From Blasia pusilla (Eukaryota), in NCBI GenBank assembly GCA_050084515.1, contig CM114271.1, positions 34,162,001 to 34,226,000 on the forward strand: DNA of 64,000 bases, written 5' to 3'. A model generated the notes under the pieces. The model was not told the origin of the DNA and made no database searches. It saw only the letters and a program-made list of their open reading frames with translations. Below, in pieces: positions 1,900-60,818 of the stretch. A program made the translations under genes and the position numbers. How positions within the stretch are numbered: position 1 is the first letter of the stretch; each line of letters begins with the position of its first letter.

Positions 1900-4800
1900 A
1901 TTCATCTTTTTAGAATTCGGTTCATATTAGGGTTCCAAATGTGAATATTAGGGCTTAGCTTATTGTCATTTGGAGAAATTTCCCAAGGTAACGTCCTCTA
2001 TTCACCCACCCTTCCCCTCCTTTCCCAAGTCCTTTCTTGTTTGTCGTATTTGTCGTATGTGCTTCTCATTTTGGTTCGATTCTCGTTTGTATTTGTTACC
2101 CTTCCCGTACATACACTTTTCTTCTCATCTATTTTATCTCGAAGGGCCCATGATCTTTTCACACTCTTAGCAACTCTACGTATTCATGAGTTTATTTTTG
2201 GGAGGGGGTTGGGACTAGAAGTCCTAGGTGATGTCGGTAGGTGAGAGTTTATGTTAGAGGGAGCATTACCGTGGGACGGAAGAGAGTGGTTTGCCGGGAC
2301 CGCTCGTTCGAATGGGGATGACAGGATCAAGTATTGACGGGGATTGTCGCATGCGATTTTATTGGAGGGGCCATGTCCTCTTCTTGGTGAGTTGCATCCA
2401 TGCCTCGACCGCATCGGCTCCCCGTGTGGGGACCCGTGGGTCGTCTAGTCGGGATACTAAATGCCCATGTTGTCCCGAATTCTTCACTCGTTCAGAATTC
2501 GGAACCACTTAGCGGCTAAACATCCCGACTTTGATAGATTTGGATGGGTGGTCCCTCCTGCCGACCATGGATGCTCTCGGTGCTTCCCGCATCATCGCCC
2601 CCTCCCGAGGCATGGGAGTGGTTGAGGTCCCACCAGGCAGCATTATAGGTCTCTTCGAGACCCGTTTTCCCTGCCGAGGTTGTTTCATAGGATCCCCATG
2701 CTATTCGGGGACGACCTCCGCCACGCATTCCTCCTTCCCCTCGCTAGGATCGCCCTTGATCCTATGGATGAGCTCTCGTGGTACCTACTACTTCTCCTTC
2801 CACGATGGTGTCTTCGTTACACTCGGGAGGAAGGCCGGTCATAGAGAGGTTATAGCACGTCCGAGACGCTTTCGAGGAGGTGATTGGGAGTCTCTGCAGA
2901 GTGAGTTTGTGGCATTCGCGAGGTAGTAGTTCACCTGGTTTCCGGCGGACGATCCTGGAGCAGCCAGGTTGCGGCGATGTAGGACATCGGGCGAGCTCGT
3001 GAGTACTCACGAGCTGCACGTGCTCTTCGCCCGATGGACATGGCTCCTTCTTCAGCTGTTACCATCGATGCCCTCCGGAGGCTACATCCTCGTCCATCGG
3101 TTGACATTCCAGCTTTTGCACGTGACTTCCACCCTGACACGGCTATATGCCTTGACCCGTCCCTCTTTACGGGCACTTTGGACGTTCTCGAGGATTGCGG
3201 CCGGAGGTTTGTATGCGGTATGATGTACGAACACCTTCATGATTGCTTTCCTTCCGAGGACACCGCTAGCGGCTTCTCCGAAGTTGCTTCAGGTTGCCTC
3301 TCACCTAGCTCGTGGGAGAGTGCCACAACAATGGCCCAAGTATTAGGGGCGGGGCGACTTTTGGCGTTGTCAAAGGGGGGTGGTGGTATCCGTCCGATTG
3401 CCATAGGTGAGGTGCTCTTGCGGTTGGTGAGTCGTACTCTCGCTTTGCAATTCCGTGAGGCTTTCAAATCCACATCGAGTCCGCATCGTTTGGAGTTGCC
3501 ACGCCCGGCCGGATGTGAGACGGTTGCCTTAGGTTTGAGGGCTTGTCTAGATGTACATCCAGAGTGGGTGGTTCTCCAAGTGGACGTGGAGAACGCCTTC
3601 AACTCAATATCTCGGGCTACTATATTCACAGAGTTGAGGGACGCGGGTGGCCCCATGGCGAGCCTCATTCCCTTTGTGCAGGCTTTCTATGGGGCCCCTT
3701 CGGCCCTCTATTTCCACCATGGTCGATTCGAGGAGGAGGTCACGGTCTTGGAGTCCGCCACGGGACTCGTCGGGGTGACCCCTCTGGGTGGCGCGTTGTT
3801 TGTTGTGGCTCATTACCGAGCGGTTCTTTCTACGGTGGAGGCTTTCCCGGGTTGCATGTTCCCTTCGCTGGCAGATGATACTCATATTGTTGGTCCTGGA
3901 GATCTGGTTGTCCCTGCATTCGAGCACTTTTCAGCACAGTTGGCACGTGTCGGCCTGGCGGTGAAGGTGGGGAAGTGCAAGGCTTGGTCTCCATCAGGCC
4001 TACGTGATGATCTACATTTACCGGACGGCTTCTTGCGACCTGTCGGAGGGCTTCGAGTCTTGGGAGTACCGCTCGGGAGCCAGGACTTTGTATCGACTTT
4101 CGTGGCAGCGGCTCTTACCGAGGATCTTCTCCACGTTGATGATCTTACGAGGATTGGTGACCCTCAAGTCGCCTTCGGCATTCTCTCTTCTTGTTTTGCT
4201 CGTAGACCTGGTTACCTCACTAGAATGCCTCGGACATCTAGTCACCTTTCTTCCCTATATAGATCCTTTGATAGGAAGCTCATGCAGGTGTTTGGGGATC
4301 TTCTAGGACCCGGCTCCTTAGAGTGCCCCATGGGGGATTAAGTTCTTAGACAGGCCTCTTGGCCGATTTCTTTTGGTGGAGTAGGTCTTCTCTCGACCGA
4401 GTTAGTGGCGCCCTCCGCTTTTTTAGGGAGTTGGGCCATAGTGGCACCCCTCCTTTGCTCCCGATTTTTGGTTAGAGATAGACCGCTCCTTCTACACTAC
4501 GTCTCCCAGGTCGAGGATGGCTCTTTCCCACTTCAGTCTTCACTCACAGCTTGTAGAGATTCCCTTCGAGTTGAGGCCAGAGCCGTTCTCCCCACTTTCT
4601 CCTCCTTAGTTACCTCCGGTCAGTCTGGGCTCCAATCTTCCTTGATGGAAGCCCACTTTGAGGCAGTTTTTAGAGGCACTATGTCCGGACGGGAATATCC
4701 CCATGGAGGTTAGGGCCCGATTCGCTCTTGCTCCGGAAAGGGGGCAGGCTCATGGGTAGGGCGCCCCTTCTCCAGGCTTTCCGTATCGCACCACTTACCT

Positions 4801-13168: not shown

Positions 13169-16087
13169 CTAATTTTTTACGGAAAAGGTTCTATCTTCAC
13201 TGAAGCTTCTCCGGTGATGAGCGAACGAGTCCCTCTTGGCGGTTCCCGACACTCTCCTTTGCCCCATGTAGCTGCAGTACCACTCGAAAGCGAAATTGGC
13301 ACCGCTGATCTTCTCATCCTCCACGCGAGATCGCACAGCGTGGATTTCGTTGCTGGGATCTTGCATGGGGGGCTTGTTTTCCAAGTACTCCGATCCTGAC
13401 GTTTCGCCCGATCGGTTGAAATCGCTGTCCGCCTTTTCACTTCTGCTACCGGAGGACGAGAATTTGCTGCGCCGAAGGAGCCCCAGCTTCATGAATGCTC
13501 TGCCCTTGAGGGAATTTTGAGACACGCACTTGGTGGTGTCTTCATCACAATCCGCTACTCTGTGCTTCTCCAAACATCTTCCCTTCTCCCTCGTCGGTGC
13601 CAGTGGCGCGCACCTTTCCCTGGATGCCGCGCGCCTCGACCTGCTCCGGCTCACTTCGGCGATGGAGTTGCTCAGCCGCTCGAAATCAAACGCAGCAGCG
13701 GGTGCGATCTTCAAGTTCTTCGTGGGCGTGGACGGAGGAGTCCGAGAGGATCCCATTGCATTTGTCCCTGACATCGTCTCAATTTCGAAGAGATCCGAGC
13801 TCGAGTCTCCGTCTTTGTCTTCCCTGCGCTGCCGTCTGCCGAAGCTTGGGGGTGACTTCGATCTCTTGGCACCCGCCGCGAAGCTCGCCCGCTCCAGAGA
13901 ATAGAATTTGAGCTTCTTGTTCATGCCTCGCCGTGATCTCGGCGGACAGGGAACGGCTGCCATGTGCAGCGGAGAGTGAGGACGAGAGGGGGGCATTGAG
14001 GAGAATTTCCCTGGTGAGCAAGGAAGTGATCTGCAGGGGGTGCCGGGCAGAACAATCTCATGAGCTCTTTTCGTGACTGTCTGCTCTACATCAAAAGAGA
14101 AGCTGCACCGGGCTAGCGTGATGTCATCAGAGAAGCTAATCCTCGGTGAAGCGATCTCTGAATGCGAATGCACTTGTTGGTGGTAACTTGGGCTCGGCGC
14201 AGCAGCTTCGGGGTTTGTGGGTGGGAGAGGCCATCTCCCACCGTGGTTTCTACCCGAAAATGTTCGAAGGTCGGTGATGGGTGGATCTTTCCACAGGCCC
14301 CGGGGTTCTCTAAAAGGTGAACACTCGGAGAATGACGAAGTGGGTGCGAGCAGGCAGGGGAAAGTGAAGCTGCCTTCCTGATCGGAGGAGGCATGTTCGG
14401 ATGAAGGCGAGGAATCCCCGCTGTGGAGAATGCGCGTGGTGAAGAAACCGCTGTGATTCCCAGACATCTCTGGTAACTCGACGTCGCTGAGCTCGAGGAT
14501 CTGTGGAGTGTCCCTGCTACCGTCCGGCATCCGGCTCTCCACCACGACGCATCCCACAGGAATGGGCGCCGACGACGAGTCATCTTCCTCCATGGCGTGC
14601 GTCTCCCCAGAAGGTTTCTGCTTGCATTCTTCCGCCAGCGGATTCTCGAACCATTGGCAGCCATGCTCGGAATCGCCCTTCTCCGCTGCAAGCTGCCGGT
14701 GCCTGGGATCATAAGCAACATCTCCGCGGCCGCCTCCTGCGAAAACCTGCTCGGGGCTCGTCGCCTCGTCGTCGTCGTCGTCGAGAGGCAGCGCAGTGAA
14801 GTCATCGTCCAGGTACGAAGAGCTGAAACTCGTACACGGTACGAAGTACTCGCAGGATGACTCTCCTCCGCTCCCATATCCGCCCCCTCCAGACGTGCTG
14901 GCTCTAGGTCCGACCAATGGAGTCGACCCGACCGGTTCACCTCCACTCACTCCTGTCAAAAATCCTCTGAACTCTTCCACGTCTTCGTCATCGCCATGGT
15001 CGTGCGTCAAGATTCGGCTGGCAGTCGAAGTCGCGGCAGCGGCAGCTCCCGAATGCGCCACCACCCGCACTCGAAAATCGACGAATTTGTCGACCTGATC
15101 TCCTCCTCCTACCGCTCGCTTGGCTTTCGAATAGAAAGCCTCTCTCGGCATCTCATCCGCCTGAGCTCTGACCTCCGCCTCGGCTTGGGAATGGACTAGC
15201 TCGCCTTCGGATTCCATGCAAGACCGAAGGTCGTCATCCGTATGCCCATCTTCACTCCCCGCAGCACCTCCTCCTGCCGCTGCTGCTGCTAACTGGAACC
15301 TCACTTTCTTCCTCGCGACTCGCGAGCTCTCCTTCGTGCCCGTCTCTTTGCCTGCGGCTGCAGATTTCCTCCTCTGGCGTCTCCGGGCCTTGGCTCGAGC
15401 TTGGACCGCGTTGAGCACGGAATCGAACCGATCATTCGCAGCCCGATAGTTGTCGTTGTCGACGGGCTTGTCGATTGTGCTGGAAGGGACTTCCCAGTCT
15501 TCTGACTTTCGAAGATGCTCATCCCACTCTTCAGACTCACCGCTCCTGGCGTAGTCGTCGTCCACATCCCCCGTGTCCTCGGGCGCCACTTTCGCAGGGC
15601 TGGCCGAGAAGCTCTGGGATACGTCGTTCTCCTCCAGGAACACAAAAGCGTCCCGAGCCGCAGCTTTTGCAGCCGACTCCGCATAGGATTTAGCGACGGC
15701 TTCCATGGCGTGCACGTCGAAACCCTTGAGAAGAGGGGATGAAAGGTAAGATGCGAAAGAGAAGTCGCCGGTGCACATTTGGTTGACATGGTGTACCCGA
15801 TTCCTCCCGCTGACACCTCCCAAGAACATCTCTAGCGGGCTGATGTAGTTGTACGACGTATCCCTCGACCTGCTCACCCTCTTGTAGAACAGAGACCCGA
15901 GAGCTCCCAGATCTCCGACATCAGCTGAAATTCTCGGAGTGTCGAGGCCGAAACTGTAACGCCCACTGGGATTGGGGCTCTCGTACTGCGAGCTCGCAGC
16001 TTCGGGGGTGCAGAATCCGTCATCCTCGCAATGGGAATGGCCGTGACCTCCTTTCGACAAGCAAACACCCATCTCGACAATCCCCAA
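13169..16087 (-). CDS. Intronless 972-aa largely disordered protein with PHYTOCHROME KINASE SUBSTRATE / BIG GRAIN-like motifs; probable true start at the MGVCLSK Met about 5 codons downstream
   Basis: Long uninterrupted GC-rich ORF. Contains FSFASYLS and DGDSSSDLFEIE, resembling PKS/BG1 conserved motifs, and an N-terminal MGxCxSK acylation-type signal. Confidence 0.7.
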   Translation of the reverse strand: MGIVEMGVCLSKGGHGHSHCEDDGFCTPEAASSQYESPNPSGRYSFGLDTPRISADVGDLGALGSLFYKRVSRSRDTSYNYISPLEMFLGGVSGRNRVHHVNQMCTGDFSFASYLSSPLLKGFDVHAMEAVAKSYAESAAKAAARDAFVFLEENDVSQSFSASPAKVAPEDTGDVDDDYARSGESEEWDEHLRKSEDWEVPSSTIDKPVDNDNYRAANDRFDSVLNAVQARAKARRRQRRKSAAAGKETGTKESSRVARKKVRFQLAAAAAGGGAAGSEDGHTDDDLRSCMESEGELVHSQAEAEVRAQADEMPREAFYSKAKRAVGGGDQVDKFVDFRVRVVAHSGAAAAATSTASRILTHDHGDDEDVEEFRGFLTGVSGGEPVGSTPLVGPRASTSGGGGYGSGGESSCEYFVPCTSFSSSYLDDDFTALPLDDDDDEATSPEQVFAGGGRGDVAYDPRHRQLAAEKGDSEHGCQWFENPLAEECKQKPSGETHAMEEDDSSSAPIPVGCVVVESRMPDGSRDTPQILELSDVELPEMSGNHSGFFTTRILHSGDSSPSSEHASSDQEGSFTFPCLLAPTSSFSECSPFREPRGLWKDPPITDLRTFSGRNHGGRWPLPPTNPEAAAPSPSYHQQVHSHSEIASPRISFSDDITLARCSFSFDVEQTVTKRAHEIVLPGTPCRSLPCSPGKFSSMPPSRPHSPLHMAAVPCPPRSRRGMNKKLKFYSLERASFAAGAKRSKSPPSFGRRQRREDKDGDSSSDLFEIETMSGTNAMGSSRTPPSTPTKNLKIAPAAAFDFERLSNSIAEVSRSRSRRAASRERCAPLAPTREKGRCLEKHRVADCDEDTTKCVSQNSLKGRAFMKLGLLRRSKFSSSGSRSEKADSDFNRSGETSGSEYLENKPPMQDPSNEIHAVRSRVEDEKISGANFAFEWYCSYMGQRRVSGTAKRDSFAHHRRSFSEDRTFSVKN

Positions 16088-17127
16088 TTGACGCTTCTCT
16101 CCGCGTTCACATGAAATATGTCAACACCTCCGATTGCTCCCTCGCCTCATCGATCATTCACGATGCCGTACTCTTGCCGTTGTCCCATTGAGTCCTCGCA
16201 AACCCGCATTCGCCCCTCCCGACCTCCACACCATAGTGCTGCAAGTGTCCACAGCTTCTCGTATCCCTTCACATCGGGACATGTCCGAAACCCATCGCGC
16301 ACGAACATTACCTCTGCCACGGCCTCTGCTTCGGTACGGCGATCACTCCTTGCGACTTCGCTTTCTCTCCACTCTTCTACTCTTGCAGCCCAGACCCCCC
16401 GGGTCGAGCAGCCTCGTGAACTTGTTCGTGCACGGGACTCGCCTCTTGGCTAGAGCACAGCACGCAGCAGTGCACCAGCGCAGGCAGGGTTAGATCAAAC
16501 AAAAGCAGCTTGGAATGAAGCGGCAGGCAGAGACTATGGATGCCCACCCACATGTGCTGTTATCTGTTCCCGGCCCTACCTAAAGCAAAAGGAGCTCCTC
16601 CGCAACCCCACCCAGCCTACCTCACACTTCCTCCCCTACTCCGCACTCATACCACTGCCACTTCGGCTGCCGATGCGCTTTCTATCGAGACACTTCGCCC
16701 CTCGTTCCCCGCCCCTCCACCATTTTCGCTGCGCCGCTTCTGAGATTAGCCCCAGAAAAGAAGAACCCCGATGTCTACCGACTCCGTCACTGCTGCTGTC
16801 CGCTAGTCCCTGTATAAATACTGAAACGTACGTATATTGATACGCAGGCGAGCGAGCGAGGAATCGCGCGAATCGACCGCAGCTGCCATCGAATCGCATC
16901 ACTCCAAAAAGTATTCGTATACACACTGTAGAAGGATCGATCGTGTGCCCGTCATCCTCCTCCCCTTCGCACAGAAGAGAAGAAGGTCTCGTCTCCGACC
17001 GGGAGAGGCGAGCGAGCCAGGGAAGGAACGAACGAACGCCCATCGCCTCGTCTTCCGTCTAGACCGTTGTTCACAGCGCAGGCATTCACTGCACGCCACC
17101 GGATGACTGAATCACTCGATCCGCTCT

Positions 17128-32150: not shown

Positions 32151-32407
32151 TTTTTTTATGTTGGAATTTGGAACCCATACACATGCACTCCTTACTGGGC
32201 ACATATATACCAAAAATCTGCCCGTATACAACACCAATTTTAGCCCGTCTCAATTCCCAAATGTTCCATCCAAATGAAAGGAGGATGAAAGAGAAGATAT
32301 TTATATCATTATATTTATCATTATCAATGTGTGGAGAATTTCATCTTTGAGTCGTCTACGCACTTTGGAATAATCTATATTATTACGAGAGAACGTCTTT
32401 TTGATTT

Positions 32408-32544
32408 TGTCGTGCGCATACATATTGCTACACAACATACATCGCTCGTCACATCTACACCACACAACACCGATCTTCCCCACACACGGTAGATCCACAC
32501 ATGTACAAAAATCAACTCATACATATACATGGAGATCACAAAAC
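32408..32544 (-). repeat. Terminal repeat B2 (3' end of the element)
   Basis: Near-identical to 33027-33164. Confidence 0.9.
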
Positions 32545-33024
32545 AAAAATAAAGAGTTGTAAAAATGGCACACCCGGCCTAAAACTCCACTCCTCAATCT
32601 ACATCGGCATATCGAGCCTCGTCCACCCTGTGCTATCAAGGAATCCGGACGCTAGCACCCTAGTCCTAGCTCACACACATACAAGGGAGGTGCTCCAACG
32701 GCCGAACATGAGAAAGATGGCTTAGGAAAACCATCTTCCTCTCTTATATAGGGTTGGGAAGAGCCAAAAGGCTTTTCCCCTAAAAATAGCCCTTCCCTTG
32801 GTAACCTGTGCGCACAGGTTACCAGGGGCGGGTGACCTGGTCAACAAGTCACCCGACTGTAAAAGACCTCAACATGAAAGTTGTCAGGAACGACGTTCTT
32901 GACACAATGGACCTATCCTCAACCTCATCCGACACTGTGGGACAAAATTACACTCAAGATAGTCCGCTGGATCCTACGCCCTATCCACGATAGATCTCGG
33001 CCTATCAGTTACTCGGATGTGACA
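32545..33024 (-). repeat. Repeat A2 (LTR-like, TATA-containing)
   Basis: Near-identical to 39220-39660 apart from two indels and scattered substitutions. Confidence 0.9.
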
Positions 33025-33026
33025 GT

Positions 33027-33164
33027 TGTCGTGCGCATACATATCGCTACACAACATACATCGCTTGTCACATCTACACCACACAACACCGATCTTCCCC
33101 ACACACGGGTCGATCCACACATGTACAAAAATCAACTCATACATATACATGGAGATCACACAAC
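33027..33164 (-). repeat. Internal repeat B1, joined to A2 by a 2-nt spacer
   Basis: Plus strand reads ...GTGACA-gt-TGTCGT... at 33019-33032; near-identical to 32408-32544. Confidence 0.9.
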
Positions 33165-33240
33165 CGACCCCCTAGCTGGCAGTTGGATCCCCCTAACTCC
33201 AGATAGAAAATATCACATCTCTCTGACATGACCTACTACC

Positions 33241-34554
33241 CTATACACATCTCGGACACATCCATCGTCCTGTGGGAACCACATCAAGAGGGGGGGTCAG
33301 ACATGACATATGCCACCCTCGAGAACAACCATCACATACCAACATGGTGGTTGCACCCCTCGCAAATCTGCACAACATACACCTTAAGCCTACAAGTACC
33401 ACTGCCAAGCTTGGATCCACCGTCCCATCTACGTTCGGAAGATGACATGGCGCACAATTGCGCACATGATCCTTCCAAACCATACCATCCCGTCCCTCCA
33501 ACATGAGGACTCCGGTCGGTAATACCTCACGCACACGTAGGATCGTACGCCCTGTTGTAACATCTAGCGTCGTAGGTGTCGCCTGCTGTAAATACACGTA
33601 ATCTCCAGGATGAAACCTCCTAATCCTTGGACGATAACCTCCTCCACGAATAGTCGCGTACCTCAATGTATCTCTATGCTGGGCAATAGCTAAGTTCTCA
33701 AAGGCCATAGGCATAACTCTACAAAAAACTTCTGCCCTCTGAGAACATGCTTGTACCCACACATTTGGATCATGAATATCTAACACCTCCGCCATGTCAC
33801 GTCGAATCGCTGCAGGTAAATCTGGCTCTCTCCCAAAGAGCAAAAAGTATGGTGAAAATGACGCCAAGGATGCCTGCCGACTAAAGCGATAACCCATAGC
33901 CAACCATGGCAACTGTAGGTCCCACTCCCTCAACTGTCCCCGCTGCAAGCCATACTTGCGCAATCCTCTCTCCACCGTTTGTACCACTCTCTCCGCCAAC
34001 CCATCCGCCTCAGGATGATCTCTAGACGTGGTGCGGTGATCTATCAACGCCTGATCACACAAGGCCTGAAACTCTCCCCTGAACTCGGTACCCTGGTCAG
34101 TCAACACCTCCGCCGGTGCACCAAAGTGACTAAGCACACGATCTAGAAACGCATAAGCCGTTCCTCGCCGCCTTTGTGTCGGTAGTGCCACCAACTCTAT
34201 CCACTTGGAGAAATGCTCCACCATGACCAACATGTACCTATGATGACGCCCTGTCAATGGCAAAGGTCCCGCAAAGTCTAAACTCCACCGATAACCTAAA
34301 CCCATAATCAGCAAAGGATGTAACTGCGGAGTGGGAGCATTGAAGGATGCTCACACTCTGTCACATACCATACATCTGGCCACAAACTGCTGTACCCCAG
34401 TATGCATGCCGTGCCACCAATACTGAACCTGGAGTAAACTGTAAGTACGCTTTATTCCAAAATGTCCCAACTCCTCATGGGCCTGTCGCACTACACGTGC
34501 TCGCTGGGAAGGATGACGTACCACTCGTATCCTACCATCTCCCCATACCCGCAA
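33241..34554 (-). pseudogene. DDE integrase with N-terminal HHCC finger and C-terminal PHD finger
   Basis: AHEELGHFG..CMVC; SLDFAG, LTDQG, ADGLAERVV; C-terminal CMLC..CDGC..H..C..W.CPRC (Cys4-His-Cys3). Interrupted near 34350. Confidence 0.92.
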
Positions 34555-34868
34555 AATGTGAGTCCCCTCCCACCTGAACCTCTTGGCTCTCTGTAGGATC
34601 CGATCCCGCTCCTAGCACTCCTTTGTACTCGCAATGACGCCGCGGTGAGCAAGAACTCCACAACCTCCACGTCGTCATGGATATCACGACCACCTGTCGC
34701 CTCCTCACTAACCTCCGGATCCAAAGACTCATCATCCAATCCCACCACTGGAGTCATCACCTGTGGATGACCTGCCATAGTCAACCAACAAAGATAGGCA
34801 TATGCATGCCAACCGGGCACCATCTCCTCATCACTCTCTCCGTGCCATCGAGCTCCTGTGTCGTCTCT

Positions 34869-35291
34869 CTAACTCGGACATGGGTTACGACTCAACCCAT
34901 CCGCATCCTGGTTCAGCCGACCTGGCCTATGAACCACCTCAAACTCATACTCCAGTAGTAATAGAGCCCACCTGGCAAGCTTTCCTGTGAGCTTCTCGGA
35001 CTCCATCAACCACCTCAACGGCTGATGATCAGTGATAAGTGTGAAAGGGTTGACGAATAAATAGCACCTAAAATGTGCCACAACCCACACTGCAGCCAAG
35101 CACTCTCCCTCGTAGGAGCTGTACTTTGCCTCTGCAATGTTGTTCGATCGGCTCGCGTAAGCCACAACGAACTCCCTCTCCTCGTCATCCCTCTGAGTAA
35201 GCACTGCTCCTAGACCCAACATGCTCAAATCCGTATGTAACTGGAATGGGCGACCCCTAACCGGTCTCTGTAAAATGGGTGAGGACGTCAA
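34869..35291 (-). pseudogene. RNase H domain (Ty3/gypsy type)
   Basis: FQLHTD.S..GLGAVL, VVAYASR, YSSYEGECLA, LITDHQPL, ADGLSR. Confidence 0.92.
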
Positions 35292-35306
35292 CCTGTCCTT
35301 GAGCTC

Positions 35307-36321
35307 CTAAAATGCTCGCTCCTGATAATCTCCCCACAACCAAACCTGATCAAGTCTCGTCAACAAGGTCAAAGACTTTGCGATTGCACTAAAACCCTTG
35401 ACATACCGTCGATAGAAGTTCGCCAGTCCAAGAAATGCTCGGACTCGACTCACATCTGTAGGGCGTGGAATCTGCGCAATAGCCTCTACCTTCGTCTGCT
35501 GAACGCCTAACCCACTCGGGTATATGGTGTGTCCCAAGTACTCAATCTGCTCCTGAAAGAATTTGCACTTTCCTAGATGTAACTTCAGTCCATGTAACTG
35601 CAATCGCCGAAACACCTCCTCCAAGTGTCGCTCATGCTCCTCAACCGTGGAACTGAAGATAAGAATATCATCTATGTAACATCGTACAAAATCCAAGCCA
35701 GCCAGAATCCTATCCATAACTCTCTGAAACTCCGCAAGCGCGTTCTTCAATCCAAATGGTAAGAACCGCCATCGATACAAGCAATCTCTCCCGAACCGAT
35801 CTATCCCCAGAATCGTGTCTTCTCCTGTCCTCCAACTCCGATAGGAAGGCGATGATAGCCAAAGCACGGAGATCTAAAGTACTGAAGATCTTTGCATGCC
35901 CTACTGCATCAAAGATCTCCTCAGGAGTAGGCATGGCATACCGATCTGACCTCGTTTGATGGTTGATAGGACAATAATCTCCACACATCCGCCTATCCAT
36001 CCAATTTCCATACATATCCTTCTTCGCCGGCATGACCGTGGTAGATGCATACTCCCCATGTGATAACTCCACAAGTCCTGCCTCCAACAAGTCCCGACTC
36101 TTGCTCTGAATCAAGGCTCGCTCCATATCAGAATACCTGTAGGGTCGACGAAAGATCGGCGTATCACTAGCCAACTCAATCTGTATCCTAGGACCCTTCA
36201 GCGTACCCAAGTCTCTCATACTGAAGGCAAAACAACTGACATGCCCTCTCAGAAACCTATGAACTCGCCGTTGCTCTCCTCCTATCAACTTGGGACCTAT
36301 CATAGGCTCCCAAGTCTCCAT
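35307..36321 (-). pseudogene. Reverse transcriptase (Ty3/gypsy type), frameshifted
   Basis: RRMCGDY..IN, FSTLDL, LPFGLKNA..FQRVMD, CYIDDILIFS, IEYLGH, FLGLANFYRRYV. Confidence 0.93.
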
Positions 36322-36619
36322 CGTGACCTCACTCGGAGAGGACGCAACCTCCGACTTTGGTTGCTATGTAGCAACCCTAGCCACCTCTACAACAGCCACT
36401 CCACTCTGACTTCCTACACCATGCTCCACATCCGAAAAATGAACATGTGCTACTCTAGCCGCCTTCATGATCTCTCTTTCGAACGACGCCCTAGGAAGTC
36501 CATGGGTGCCTATCTCTCTCGTCTCGCTTGACCAATGCATGTCAGACCACTTGAGGCAATGGTCCAACTCGTGGACGTGACGGCATGGATGACACTTGCA
36601 TCTGTCTCAGCTCAGCCAT

Positions 36620-37573
36620 ACCTAGGCTGACTATCCATGTGAGACAGTTGAGGTCCATCGCCTGCCCCAACACCTCTCTTCGTGATGCCTCAGTCATCCA
36701 TGGCACCGCCGTAGTACCGGTGGTGAACCCCATGGCGCGCTCGCGCTCATCTGCTGTAGGCTCCTCCAATACTCCGGTCACCTCATCCCAAATCATGCAT
36801 GGCCCTTCCTGATGAAAGGCATGGGATGTTGGGAAGCTCACCAACGTAGGTAAGGCTGCCCTCAACTCCCCCACCCTATTGGCCATGGCCAACGGTGGTC
36901 TATCATCCCGTGTCGCCACCTGAGATCGACGCCCTGAGCCCAAAATAGCATCCACTGTGAGATGTGGTGCTCTCTGGACTCCATTGTAGGCTTGACTTAG
37001 TACCTCTGATGATATCAGGTTCGTCCACCACAGTCGTGGACGATGGGCACGTGACCCAACTCTCGCTGCATCTAACAACACAGCAGGTCCCAACCAGGAC
37101 CTCACGTGATGTACACTCGTCATCACACGTACACGAGTGTCTCCCAACAACGGCACGTTCTCCAAAATGTACGCTGGAGAACATATCTGACTCTCCTGCA
37201 AATGTCGTACTACTCGCAACATCTCCCAAAACATCCCTCACCTCGGATCCTGCAATCCAAATCCTCGGCCAATTGATGAATGACCATGACATGACCATCC
37301 AGCAATCACCAAATGAATGGTGCCAACTCTATCCAGATACTGTGCCCCCACCAAAGAGATGTCGGCGGGTAGCGTATGCTGGTATCCCCGTACTGCAGAT
37401 ACCGACAACAACTCAAGATACCTCTGGACCAATCTCGCCACGTGACGTAATGATACTCGCAGCGCGGTCTCATCTCTCTCCACATAAAGGTACTGATGCA
37501 CCCGTATGCCCGCCTGCAATATGGTAGCCAATCCGGTGCTAATCCCTCCGAAGAGATCTAACACCCTAACACC
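36620..37573 (-). pseudogene. DNMT3-like C5-cytosine DNA methyltransferase domain inside the retrotransposon pol (one in-frame stop at 37238-37240)
   Basis: Motif I VRVLDLFGGISTG; II YVERD; IV LVIAGWSCHGHS; VI YILENV; VIII HRPRLWWTN; IX ERERAMGF; X RREVLGQAMD. Linear I-X order as in DNMT3, not the permuted DRM order. Confidence 0.9.
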
Positions 37574-37959
37574 CTCCTCTGGGCACTGCCACACAACAGG
37601 TGTGGTATCTAGTGGGGTCATCGTCTCCACTCCAAGAGCCCGATCGCCACGTGACTCTCGCTGCTCTGGGATAAAAACATGACTCCACGCGTGCCTCACG
37701 AGGTTGTTGACACTCTTTTGTAGCTCCCGAGTTGTACCCCACAATGGTGAAGAGGCCTCGCCAACATGGGAAGAGATGGGATGAGACCCGCCATGGCCTG
37801 TCTCTCCGTGGGACATACCGCTACTGGGACATCCTCTGCATGTGCGTTCCCCTCCAACAACTCTCCTGGCCAGCTAACACTACATGTGAAAGCCGCCAAC
37901 GTGGTCACAGACTCGCCTCGTGATCGACCACCTCGTCCCGCAAACTGCAGGGGTAACTG

Positions 37960-38400
37960 ACTCATCCGGCCGTCACCTGACCGCCATCCTGGCCGATAAG
38001 CAACGGTCTCCTCCCAGAAGTCAAGGATGAATCCTAGGGAATATAACATTGTACTCCCCACCAACACATCGTACGACTCAGCTGGTGTCCGTCGCATGCT
38101 ATGGCTGGACTCTGACAAAAATATCTTGTCGAATCATATACTGAGTGAGTGATACGCCCCCAATCGAGGTATGTATCTGGAAGGGACAAGGCTCAATGTC
38201 GGCCTTCTGTAACCCCAACGCTAAACACGCCCCCTTCCCTAACATCAAGGGTTGCGCTCCCGAATCAAGTAGGACGCGCTGCGGGTGGTATATCGTCCCC
38301 GTTGGACTAACCAAGCGAAATACTCCAGATCGGTTATCCAGTAACACTACTCCAGGTGTCACCACTGCTCGCTCTATGGCCGGTCGAGCTGGCATATCTA
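37960..38400 (-). pseudogene. Retropepsin aspartic protease domain, frameshifted
   Basis: RVLLDSGAQPLMLG active-site motif, then YDVLVG..L...GFILDF in the next frame. Confidence 0.8.
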
Positions 38401-39205
38401 CCAACTTTGCCGCCGCCGCATGCCATGACTCTGTGGGGAACGTCCCAAGCACCGGCTCTGAGGGCAAGTCCACCACCTCCTGAACTACCTCTGAACAAGA
38501 AGTAGTCATCTCTCCACGCTCATACAACGTGGCGGCCAACCGGAACACCTCAGATGGTCCAACTCCCAACGTCGCCAACTCTATGGTGGAAAATAGCAGA
38601 GTCTGACTCACTCTAGTGGCCACCTCCAACACTATAGTCGAAACTGACTCCACTCAAGCCGGCATAGGAGTTGTCACTCCAACTCCTCGTGACGTCGACG
38701 TAGGTGCCTGAATTGTAGGCACCGCTGGTCGTCGAGGCACCATCGATGGTGTGTGTAGTGCCTCCGACAATGTGAACGACTGTGGAACCCTGGCCTGCCG
38801 CCCATCGGTCCCCTCTGGTGGATCAATCTCAACTCCACCTCTCGATGGCTCCTGACTCCGTGGTCCTCCAGTCCTTGTCCGTGACCTAACCCTAGACCGG
38901 CCCCGACCTAGCTAGCCGTCTTTACTTAACAGCCCCCCGGTGGCTGCAAGACCCAAACTTTCCTTTCTTCTCTCTCTCGACACCCTCACTTGCGTACACG
39001 CGACGCCCCACCACACACTACACTCAGCTGCTGTCCCCCATCAATCCGCACCAGCAAAATCTGAGAAAAACGGACAGCGCTTCCGCCCACGGCCTTCCGA
39101 ACAGAAAAATGACACACAAAATGTCACACACACGTCTCCAGGGGCTCCCGACCAAGGCAACTCGCTTGCCTACCTGCAAACATTGAATTCCCACCAGCCC
39201 CCTGA

Positions 39206-39219
39206 CATCTTTCTCATGT
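39206..39219 (-). promoter_or_regulatory. Putative self-priming primer-binding site (ACATGAGAAAGATG) immediately downstream of repeat A1
   Basis: Perfect 14-bp complement of 39381-39394, which begins about 32 nt downstream of the minus-strand TATATAA. Confidence 0.7.
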
Positions 39220-39660
39220 AAAAATAAAGAGTAGTAAAAACGGCACACCCGGTCTAAAATTCGACTTCTCAATCTACATCGGCATATCGAGCCTCGTCCA
39301 CCCTGTGCTATCAAGGAATCCGGACGCTAGCACCCTAGTCCTAGCTCACACACATACAAGGGAGGTGCTCCAACGGCCCAACATGAGAAAGATGGCTTAG
39401 GAAAGCCATCTTCCTCTCTTATATAGGCCCTAAAAATAGCCCTTCCCTTGGTAACTGCGCACCCCGGGTGACCTGGTCAACAAGTCATCCGGCTGTAAAA
39501 GACCTCAACATGAAAGTTGTCAGGAACGACATTCTTGACACAATGGATCTATCCTCAACCTCATCCGACACTGTGGGACAAAATTACACTCAAGATAGTC
39601 CGCTGGCTCCTACGCCCTATCCACGATAGATCTCGGCCTATCGGCTACTCAGATGTGACA
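39220..39660 (-). repeat. Repeat A1 (5' LTR-like end) with TATATAA box at ~39419-39425
   Basis: Matches 32545-33024; begins TGTCAC on the minus strand. Confidence 0.9.
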
Positions 39661-39810
39661 ATTTGCAAACACCTCTCTAATTGAAAAATGAATAACAATA
39701 AAATATTTCACATATTACGGACAACAAATTTTTTTAAATTTAAAATGATATATTAATCTTTTTTATTTCCCGCGTATGGTAGTTGCATCTTACTCGTCAT
39801 CCTTTCATTA

Positions 39811-59351: not shown

Positions 59352-59913
59352 ACGGATGGGACGGAATTAGTAGGAGGTTGTCACGTGCTATGTGTTAAAG
59401 TCACACGAATATCATTAATCATACAAAATTAGCTCACACACATTTGCTACATGGATCCATGGTGGGCAGAAATGTAAAACTTTCATCCACGGTAGACAAC
59501 ATTCACACAAATCAAAGTAGCTTGCCCAGCCTAGATGCAAAGCAAAGCATACATGAGGGAGGCTGTAATCATTAAATGGAGCCAATTTTAGTAACATGAG
59601 GAATCTAAAAAATTCAATATCATTTACAACAACTCTTTTAGTGTCTAATGTAAATTTCAAAAGCCCCACATTGAGTAATACTATTTTTTCCATATTTAGG
59701 CATGAATATTCTTAGAAGCATCCATTTTTTTAAATGACCATTGCCAATATGTGTTGTTAGAATTTATGCTTTTAAAAGAGTAATAAAAAAATCCTTCATA
59801 ATTTTGTGTATTTGGGATTTGTTTTGTCCACATGTGTTGTTAGATTCACTATTATATTTACGATCAATTTGCAATTGTGACTCCCAAGAGTTACAACAAC
59901 TCGCAATTTACTT

Positions 59914-60503
59914 TGTCATAACTTAGTTAGCCAAAAGGTAAAATTCGATCTTGTTGACGACGTAGAAAGTAACAGATGGTTTGAGCATAACTTTAGCTTG
60001 AGGTGTCGGATGAGGTTGGCAATAACTCTATTTGGTTAGGATTATCGTCTAAGAAAATTCGTGTCTTTCGCTATATTGGGCCATATGACCCATTGACTGA
60101 GTCAACGAAATCGATCGGTAACCTATATACGTATATTACTAACCTAGGGCTATTTTGGGGGAAAGTTCCCTTTTGGCTCTTCCTAGGGATATATAGATGA
60201 AAGAGATGGCTTTCAAAAGCCATCTTTCTCATGTTGAGCCTTTGGAGCATTTAGAGTTTTAGGATTTGCTAGAGTCTTGATTCCCTCATGGCAAAGGGTG
60301 GATGTGGCTCAATATGTCGATGTAGATTCAAGAGTGGATTTGCGGTTGTGTTACTTTTACTTTGATTTTGTTATGTGAACTTGATGTACATGCATAAGTG
60401 TGTTTTTGTATTTTTGTGGAACTACCTATGTGTAGGGAAAATTAATGTTGTGTCCATGCGACCCAAAAATGTGGATTATGTAGCGATGTGTATACGCACA
60501 AAA
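59914..60503 (+). mobile_element. Diverged solo A+B terminal unit of the DNMT-gypsy family
   Basis: Reverse-complement blocks of A then B: gtgtcggatgaggttg, gggctatttt, gccatctttctcatgtt, tgtagcgat.tgtat.cgcac. Starts TGTCA; flanks ACTT/ACTC (3/4 TSD match). Confidence 0.8.
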
Positions 60504-60818
60504 ACTCACAATATAATCTTATGCTTATGAGTTTGCCACTAAAAAAAATCACAAATGAGAGAAATTTATTCATAATTTATTATTGTGATGTGAGTCAGAA
60601 AGGGCCATTCGTAATTGAATTGTGAATTCACAATTCAATTACAAAAATCTTGGAAGGTACTCAAAAACCATTTGCAATGTTTTTATAACTTTGCAATTAG
60701 ATTATGGGTTTTCACGGGTCTTCGTAGTCATTTTGATCACTCACAAGTTACTCACAAGGATCTCGCAAAGAAGTAACAAAAATGTAGTTAAAACGGAGAG
60801 GTAAAGATTTTGCACTTA

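Follow-up and report, generated by a model that had tools for sequence, protein, structure and literature searches.

The retrotransposon at 39660-32408 on the minus strand of the window (the whole 64,000-nucleotide stretch of Blasia pusilla DNA analysed here) is a degenerate Ty3/gypsy-type element. Its genes run in the order protease, reverse transcriptase, RNase H, and integrase, and both its reverse transcriptase and its integrase are Ty3-like. A full-length relative (P0003) matches the Ty3 Gag-Pol structure at E 4e-101, which places the window element in the Ty3/gypsy type. Two repeats, A and B, occur twice each within it, and its features in the 5′ to 3′ sense of the element are as follows.

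39661-39664, minus strand: 5′ target-site duplication (TSD) AAAT; the identical 4 nt stand at 32404-32407, directly outside TGTCA...GACA
39220-39660, minus strand: repeat A1, 441 nt, beginning TGTCAC (a Gypsy-type TGTNR end), with promoter, R, and U5 within it
39419-39425, minus strand: TATATAA box, from the sequence
39389-39412, minus strand: hairpin across the predicted start site, with 5′ arm AAGATGGC, loop TTTCCTAA, and 3′ arm GCCATCTT
39381-39394, minus strand: predicted self-primer CATCTTTCTCATGT, the first 14 nt of the predicted transcript and the exact complement of 39219-39206
39206-39219, minus strand: predicted primer-binding site (PBS) ACATGAGAAAGATG, directly after A1 and the exact complement of 39394-39381
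38099-38653, minus strand: protease-like open reading frame fragment with an LLDSGAQ motif in its translation; no Pfam match
36545-37873, minus strand: C5 cytosine DNA methyltransferase-like domain in pol, with one in-frame stop (PF00145, E 3.2e-5)
35307-36363, minus strand: reverse transcriptase, frameshifted (PF00078, E 4e-23)
34869-35306, minus strand: RNase H (PF17917, E 5e-34)
33241-34350, minus strand: DDE integrase core and C-terminal PHD finger (PF00665, E 7e-15; PF00628, E 1e-10)
33168-33173, minus strand: polypurine tract (PPT) AGGGGG, from the sequence, 3 nt ahead of B1
33027-33164, minus strand: repeat B1, 138 nt, ending ...CGACA, 96% identical to B2
33025-33026, minus strand: dinucleotide AC between B1 (..GACA) and A2 (TGTCA..), the centre of a palindromic joint
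32545-33024, minus strand: repeat A2, 480 nt; a second copy of the primer segment occupies 32719-32706
32408-32544, minus strand: repeat B2, directly adjoining the end of A2; its ...CGACA is the element terminus
32404-32407, minus strand: 3′ target-site duplication AAAT
59876-60508, plus strand: solo A-B unit belonging to this family but diverged; its 14-mer lies at 60221-60234

The methyltransferase domain lies between the protease and the reverse transcriptase and contains the DLFGG.., ENV, and RPR motifs. Its match to PF00145 scores 24 bits against a cut-off of 22, with the stop translated as X. Some relatives from metagenomes also bear PF00145. The integrase has no chromodomain at its C-terminus; a PHD finger (PF00628) is found there in the window element and in nearly all listed relatives. 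A Pfam scan of eight open reading frame pieces from the window element finds the rve integrase core and no member of the phage-integrase (tyrosine recombinase) family. Named protein relatives of the PHD-finger integrase come from the green algae Haematococcus, Pleodorina, Tetrabaena, and Chromochloris, and many more come from metagenomes. The ESM Atlas returns only generic integrase and PHD clusters. The window copy is dead: it carries stops and frameshifts, and its 5′ internal sequence is about 2 kb shorter than that of the related locus L005. Its primer site is thus a fossil of the family's mechanism.

Similar combinations of domains are known from green algae. KnitGypsy-Dnmt3 of Klebsormidium nitens is a Gypsy LTR element with a C5 DNA methyltransferase inside pol, like the window element, whereas its description in the available part of the source mentions no PHD finger, self-priming, or split repeats (PMC5890265). 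Transposons of Chlamydomonas are described as often carrying PHD fingers (PMC8557442), and the integrase of Chlamydomonas REM1 is reportedly reduced to a truncated, reversed form that has a chromodomain (PMC2774666). Troyka elements were considered as relatives and, from the accessible portion of their description, are unrelated.

Repeat A1 ends, in minus-strand sense, in ...CTCTTTATTTTT at 39220; this end, ...TTTATTTTT, carries no CA. The 14 nt that follow directly are the exact complement of a 14-mer inside A1. An earlier note on this DNA had pointed out this pair, and sequence comparison and a pattern search both reproduce it. The note had placed the A1 14-mer about 32 nt downstream of TATATAA, and it lies 31 nt from the first T. 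It had also reported that no TGG-type tRNA PBS stands at the repeat end; indeed no TGG is present there, the nearest being CTGGTGGGAATTC, about 22 nt further on. The repeat and its solo copy needed new bounds: A1 runs from 39660 to 39220 and starts with TGTCAC, and the "solo copy" consists of A followed by the second repeat, B. The pairing is exactly 14 bp long, with unpaired flanking bases on either side. With up to one mismatch allowed, the 14-mer has four sites in the window: 39381-39394 (minus), 32706-32719 (minus, in A2), 39206-39219 (plus, the complement after A1), and 60221-60234 (plus, in the solo copy). Shuffled sequences are expected to hold 0.05 such sites, and none of 100 shuffles reaches four. 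The longest complement of the site after A1 is 14 nt, against a maximum of 9 nt in 55 control windows inside the element, and the duplex energy of the pair is -22.9 kcal/mol compared with -15.3 +/- 2.0 for shuffles.

A fold of the predicted first 200 nt of the transcript, one of the checks that the earlier note had proposed, puts the 5′ end in a duplex with the site, in the minimum-free-energy as well as the centroid structure, for the window and for L005. The stability of the whole fold is ordinary in the window (z -0.66) and better in L005 (z -2.7). The 3′ arm of the hairpin across the predicted start overlaps the primer segment, and its 5′ arm, which resembles the PBS, lies between the TATA box and the predicted start. 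Analogous palindromes are present in two of the other lineages described below (1 and 2), while lineage 3 has a short palindrome, TTCTAGAA, inside the primer only. A transcript that begins at 39394 lacks the 5′ arm at its 5′ end and contains it in its 3′ copy, so the hairpin could mask the 3′ copy of the primer.

Related loci were collected by aligning the integrase with 25 relatives, which led to 80 loci on metagenome contigs with 46-83% protein identity. Among the loci with an examinable repeat, LTR sequence separates the lineage of the window and at least three others. Repeat A is present upstream of the genes in 11 of these loci and in the window; removal of two same-insertion pairs leaves 10 distinct 5′ ends. 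In the pairing test, the last 3 nt of A and the next 20 nt were searched for the longest exact reverse complement in A1 of that locus and in the A2 repeats from the same lineage. The paired segments are as follows.

Window lineage: LTR segment CATCTTTCTCATGT; site after A1 ACATGAGAAAGATG
Lineage 1: LTR segment AACATAGTTCTTTGAG; site after A1 CTCAAAGAACTATGTT
Lineage 2: LTR segment TTTTGGTGATT; site after A1 AATCACCAAAA
Lineage 3: LTR segment AGTTTTTCTAGAA; site after A1 TTCTAGAAAAACT

The four lineages have unrelated sequences at both sites, yet within every lineage the two members are complementary to each other. The earlier note had suggested a search for compensatory changes linking the two 14-mers in different subfamilies; such changes exist, in the form of four unrelated complementary pairs. 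Wherever the pairing test is positive, the LTR member begins 26-33 nt past the TATA box and its partner begins -2 to +1 nt from the repeat end. Nine of the 10 distinct 5′ ends have an 11-17 nt complement in their own LTR or in the LTR of a sister copy of the same lineage. The match is to the element's own LTR in four: the window (14 nt), L004 (12 nt), L005, which is the same insertion as L007 (17 nt), and L079 (11 nt, in its own A2). It is to a sister LTR, over 11-13 nt, in L006, L014, L031 (the same insertion as L033), L043, and L050. L029 gives no match in the pairing test, its primer site having decayed altogether.

Six of the 10 distinct 5′ ends lack a match of at least 11 nt to their own LTR; four of these (L006, L014, L029, and L031) have lesions, and L043 and L050 have a mismatch. 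Counted over all 12 loci, the exact match to the own 5′ LTR alone fails in eight, through lesions or single mismatches at the site. Against 3′ LTRs and sister LTRs the test succeeded, except in L029. Lineage 3 contains a compensatory pair of its own. The L043 PBS, ..TAGAAAAACT, matches LTRs carrying ..AGTTTTTCTA, and for the L050 PBS, ..TAAAAAAACT, only two of the 16 lineage-3 A2 repeats compared, those of L059 and L073, contain an exact complement of 13 nt. The A-for-G change in the L050 site corresponds to a T-for-C change in these two LTRs.

Control windows inside the elements have longest complements of at most 8-13 nt, with means of about 6.6-7.3 nt. The duplex energy of L005 is -28.3 kcal/mol against -13.2 +/- 2.3 for shuffles, and the energies of the window, L005, L006, L014, and L079 all stand out against the shuffle background. 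For the window and L005, pairings across lineages are weaker. The energies of L029, L043, and L050 are not distinct from shuffles; lineages 2 and 3 are AT-rich and form short duplexes, and for L043 and L050 the energy test is a weak one.

Four 5′ LTRs (L006 2758-3081, L014 1765-2075, L029 2652-2978, and L031 1975-2249) have lesions precisely at the start-site hairpin and primer segment. In L014 the whole hairpin is missing, in L029 its 5′ arm is missing, in L006 its 3′ arm is replaced, and in L031 its loop is inverted, so that the LTR carries PBS-sense sequence. The 3′ LTRs of the lesion-bearing lineages are intact at this segment. It may be speculated that the lesions are palindrome-copying errors made during plus-strand strong-stop synthesis, a step that gives rise to the 5′ LTR alone.

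Self-priming of the Tf1 type is the likely mechanism of the family, with the first ~14 nt of the element's own transcript, and not a tRNA, predicted from the sequences to serve as primer. This reading, proposed in the earlier note, is accepted because the site lies exactly at the U5 end and its partner lies where a TATA-driven transcript should begin; the comparison across four lineages, the duplex energies and folds of the window and L005, the lack of TGG, the sense orientation of family RNA reads, and the co-varying pairs all support it. In the proposed sequence of events, transcription would start at 39394, some 31 nt past the TATA box, and the RNA would fold its 5′ end back across the 175-nt R-U5 to pair with the site, the pairing itself being shown. 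By analogy with Tf1, RNase H would cut behind the duplex, and the freed 3′-OH would prime cDNA synthesis through U5 and R. Plus-strand synthesis would then copy the primer, and every new copy would start with a perfectly matched pair. Such copying would account for the co-variation of the two sites between lineages without selection on each change.

It is improbable that the pairing is instead a structure of the 5′ leader, acting in packaging, dimerization, or translation control, with the minus strand primed in some other way. The stem does close the whole R-U5 domain in the folds, and the LTR member also takes part in a local hairpin and thus has more than one pairing partner. However, the site stays within -2 to +1 nt of the repeat end in four lineages, which is where a minus-strand primer must sit because that point defines U5, and no other candidate primer site is conserved downstream.

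The same 14 nt might also come from elsewhere, either from the 3′ copy of R in A2 or, in trans, from a co-packaged second RNA. The sequence occurs twice in the full transcript, the 5′ arm of the hairpin precedes the 3′ copy, and the data do not separate cis from trans. An origin of this kind is nonetheless distinctly improbable, for it requires an extra cut inside the RNA, and Tf1 reportedly primes from the 5′ end of its RNA.

Priming by a tRNA, a tRNA half, or another host small RNA, with the LTR match secondary, is highly improbable. A site derived from a tRNA would be constant across lineages and would start with TGG; the four lineages have four unrelated site sequences, none of which begins with TGG. 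The TGG-containing string downstream of the site in the window could be taken for a tRNA site, but it is not conserved in the other lineages. A tRNA scan of the window and 51 related loci finds no tRNA genes with which the sites could be compared. Plant elements that do use tRNAs keep one site per lineage, according to the available part of PMC6317226. A functionless match, arisen by chance or through a local inverted duplication, is almost certainly not the explanation: the PBS does resemble the 5′ arm of the hairpin at 10 of 15 positions (by hand), but the chance of an exact complement to a given 14-mer in a 441-nt repeat is about 428 x 4^-14 = 1.6e-6 (by hand), and three further lineages show this arrangement with sequences of their own.

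Tf1 of fission yeast is, to our knowledge, the only directly studied case of self-priming, and its self-priming duplex is said to be 11 nt long. Tf1 and Tf2 share with the window family a site beside the 5′ LTR whose complement lies at the start of R (predicted in the window family), the apparent lack of a tRNA site, and the gene order protease, reverse transcriptase, RNase H, and integrase. The window family differs from them in its duplex of 11-17 nt, its PHD finger in place of a chromodomain, its methyltransferase in pol, its 4-bp TSDs, and its integrated ends, which are not the LTR ends; self-priming is predicted here from sequence.

Self-priming in plants is less new than the earlier note had implied. 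It has been predicted for 12% of plant LTR elements, namely Tcn1 chromoviruses and TAR copia elements (Neumann 2019, PMC6317226). The predicted share is 83% of Tcn1 and 89% of TAR elements, and Tcn1 is found in mosses and club-mosses (PMC6317226). Tcn1 elements have 5-bp TSDs (100%), a chromodomain (100%), and ordinary LTRs, whereas the window family has 4-bp TSDs, a PHD finger, and a permuted layout; in the table of that paper, as far as its available part extends, no lineage joins self-priming with a PHD finger, a methyltransferase domain, or 4-bp TSDs (PMC6317226). The window family adds a third, separate group of plant or green-lineage elements for which self-priming is indicated by comparing sequences, here together with its own DNA methyltransferase and a PHD finger. 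Self-priming frees a retroelement from dependence on host tRNAs.

RNA was placed on the element from one raw RNA-seq run with the same species label and from two possible RNA contig sets. The run yields 1,112 reads on the element, at low cover and mostly 88-95% alike, and at that similarity they derive from related copies. Stranded reads of the family lie almost all in the orientation expected of sense transcripts. At this low cover, and with reads from related copies, no pile-up of read ends and no molecule starts are seen on the element. Differences between the reads or contigs and the window copy (32300-39800) are mainly C>T, G>A, T>C, and A>G, an excess that fits decay of methylated cytosines in an old copy.

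The repeats of the element are arranged in the order A1-PBS-genes-PPT-B1-A2-B2. A1 and A2 are 88% identical with indels included and 95-96% identical in ungapped blocks, two indels apart. The same layout is present in the window and in 27 loci, which represent 17 distinct insertions, and it is very probably real and family-wide. The 3′ ends of the 80 loci fall into the following groups.

B1-A2-B2 after the integrase: 27 of 80 loci, 17 distinct insertions
Single B, then unrelated DNA: 23 of 80 loci, 19 distinct insertions, two with a truncated B
B1-A2 without B2: 3 of 80 loci
Contig stops after B1: 8 of 80 loci
No B found, or too little 3′ sequence: 19 of 80 loci

L004, L006, L010, L013, L016, L018, L027, L043, and L049 are among the single-B loci. 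Such contigs could result from cutting at both internal sites, from recombination between B1 and B2, or from collapse of the B-A-B loop in short-read assembly. In L057 (4373-5305) and L061 (1281-2213), an inverted B follows B1-A2 in place of a direct B2.

A polypurine G-run stands directly before B1 in all 28 long-form rows (the 27 loci and the window). Since the PPT adjoins the start of B and the PBS adjoins the end of A, reverse transcription should make an LTR consisting of B+A. The integrated copies do not have the ends of this expected LTR; they start at the start of A and finish at the end of B. The left end is thus A and the right end B, and the two do not carry one and the same LTR bounded by PPT and PBS. 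TGTNR is the end signature of Gypsy-type elements (PMC2836005). In the window family it is found at the start of A (TGTCA) and, as the reverse complement TGTCG, at the end of B, and it is absent from the start of B and the end of A. Perfect 4-bp TSDs flank the A-start and B-end in six of seven complete copies: AAAT in the window, AAGG in L005, TCTC in L014, ACGA in L079, TGTT in the single-B locus L004, and TACA in the single-B locus L006. The seventh copy, L043, is ambiguous. At the 3′ end of L043/L046, one insertion seems to retain two additional bases (GACA-AC), with a 6-bp duplication (TCTAGC) and not a 4-bp one.

The two repeat joints differ in kind. The joint between B1 and A2 is always (G/A)ACA-NN-TGTCA, and NN is purine-pyrimidine in 18 of 18 distinct insertions: GC in seven, AC in five, AT in three, and GT in three. 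All four can be derived from GC by C-to-T change on either strand, which suggests an ancestral 10-bp palindrome, GACAGCTGTC. The joint between A2 and B2 is a fusion of the PBS-defined end to the PPT-defined end. In the window and lineage 3 this fusion is precise; in lineage 1 it is ragged, and there L005 has an extra A, L008 a 1-nt overlap, L014 a 17-nt insert, and L028 nine replaced bases.

Relative to the canonical [B A]-PBS-genes-PPT-[B A], the provirus A-PBS-genes-PPT-B-A-B is circularly permuted. It is possible, though somewhat doubtful, that the cDNA ends are joined (A-end to B-start) and that the DDE integrase then uses the internal palindrome GACA-RY-TGTC in place of the LTR ends. Ordinary cDNA would be made first; its LTR would be B+A, with the PPT to the left of the LTR and the self-primed PBS to its right. 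The A-end and B-start could be joined through a two-LTR circle or by end-to-end template jumping, and the molecule would be reopened at the palindromic joint inside the PBS-proximal LTR. Joining of the cDNA ends followed by integration at the internal palindrome would yield a provirus that is a circular permutation. Retroviral integrases can cut palindromic LTR-LTR junctions. A two-LTR circle would hold two palindromic sites, yet of the two full-length products that these could give, just one is seen. Random cutting of such a circle would, in addition, yield A-B-A-PBS...B, and no B is found upstream of A1 in the 10 distinct 5′ ends, which counts against the simplest circle model. An origin of the permuted form by reverse transcription alone was considered and rejected: none can be derived on paper, where every scheme that has the PPT before B gives a left end made of B.

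Ngaro, PAT, and VIPER elements share the split direct repeats A1-genes-B1-A2-B2 with the window family (PMC4157794, PMC5890265, in their available parts). These elements use a tyrosine recombinase, whereas the window family has a DDE integrase (PF00665), TGTNR ends, and 4-bp target duplications. DIRS-type elements often bear a methyltransferase, as the window family does. A literature search by titles and the beginnings of abstracts, with Repbase reports and subscription journals outside its coverage, finds no split-repeat layout with a DDE integrase. Self-priming itself is already known in kind, and the permuted layout with a DDE integrase is undescribed as far as this literature shows.

The layout separates the ends made by reverse transcriptase from the ends used by integrase, which coincide in textbook LTR elements. 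If the proposed joining mechanism is true, the family would match, with a DDE integrase, a split-direct-repeat design that has until now been linked to tyrosine-recombinase retrotransposons. If the separation of the two kinds of end is confirmed, a DDE integrase would be able to act at an internal palindrome, and the family would connect LTR elements with the DIRS/Ngaro type of architecture. Software for finding LTRs that relies on identical terminal repeats beside a tRNA site would then miss the family or misplace its bounds.

The solo A-B unit at 59876-60508 is flanked by a candidate TSD, CAAT (59872-59875 and 60509-60512). Its B aligns with B1 at a score of 53, compared with 11 +/- 1.9 for shuffles. 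The earlier note had described the 14-mer as perfectly preserved in this diverged copy, and all 14 of its positions are indeed kept, though the unit is only ~72% identical to A; the hairpin arms are kept too. Similarity between the main element and the solo copy past the start of A or the end of B was looked for and rejected, local alignments there being no better than shuffles, and a reading of the upstream flank as a decayed B was likewise rejected. Elsewhere in the window, two GC-rich islands lie in AT-rich DNA: one contains a 983-aa open frame with no Pfam match (13169-16120, minus strand), and the other contains another reverse-transcriptase open reading frame (2983-4341, plus strand; PF00078, E 4e-9).
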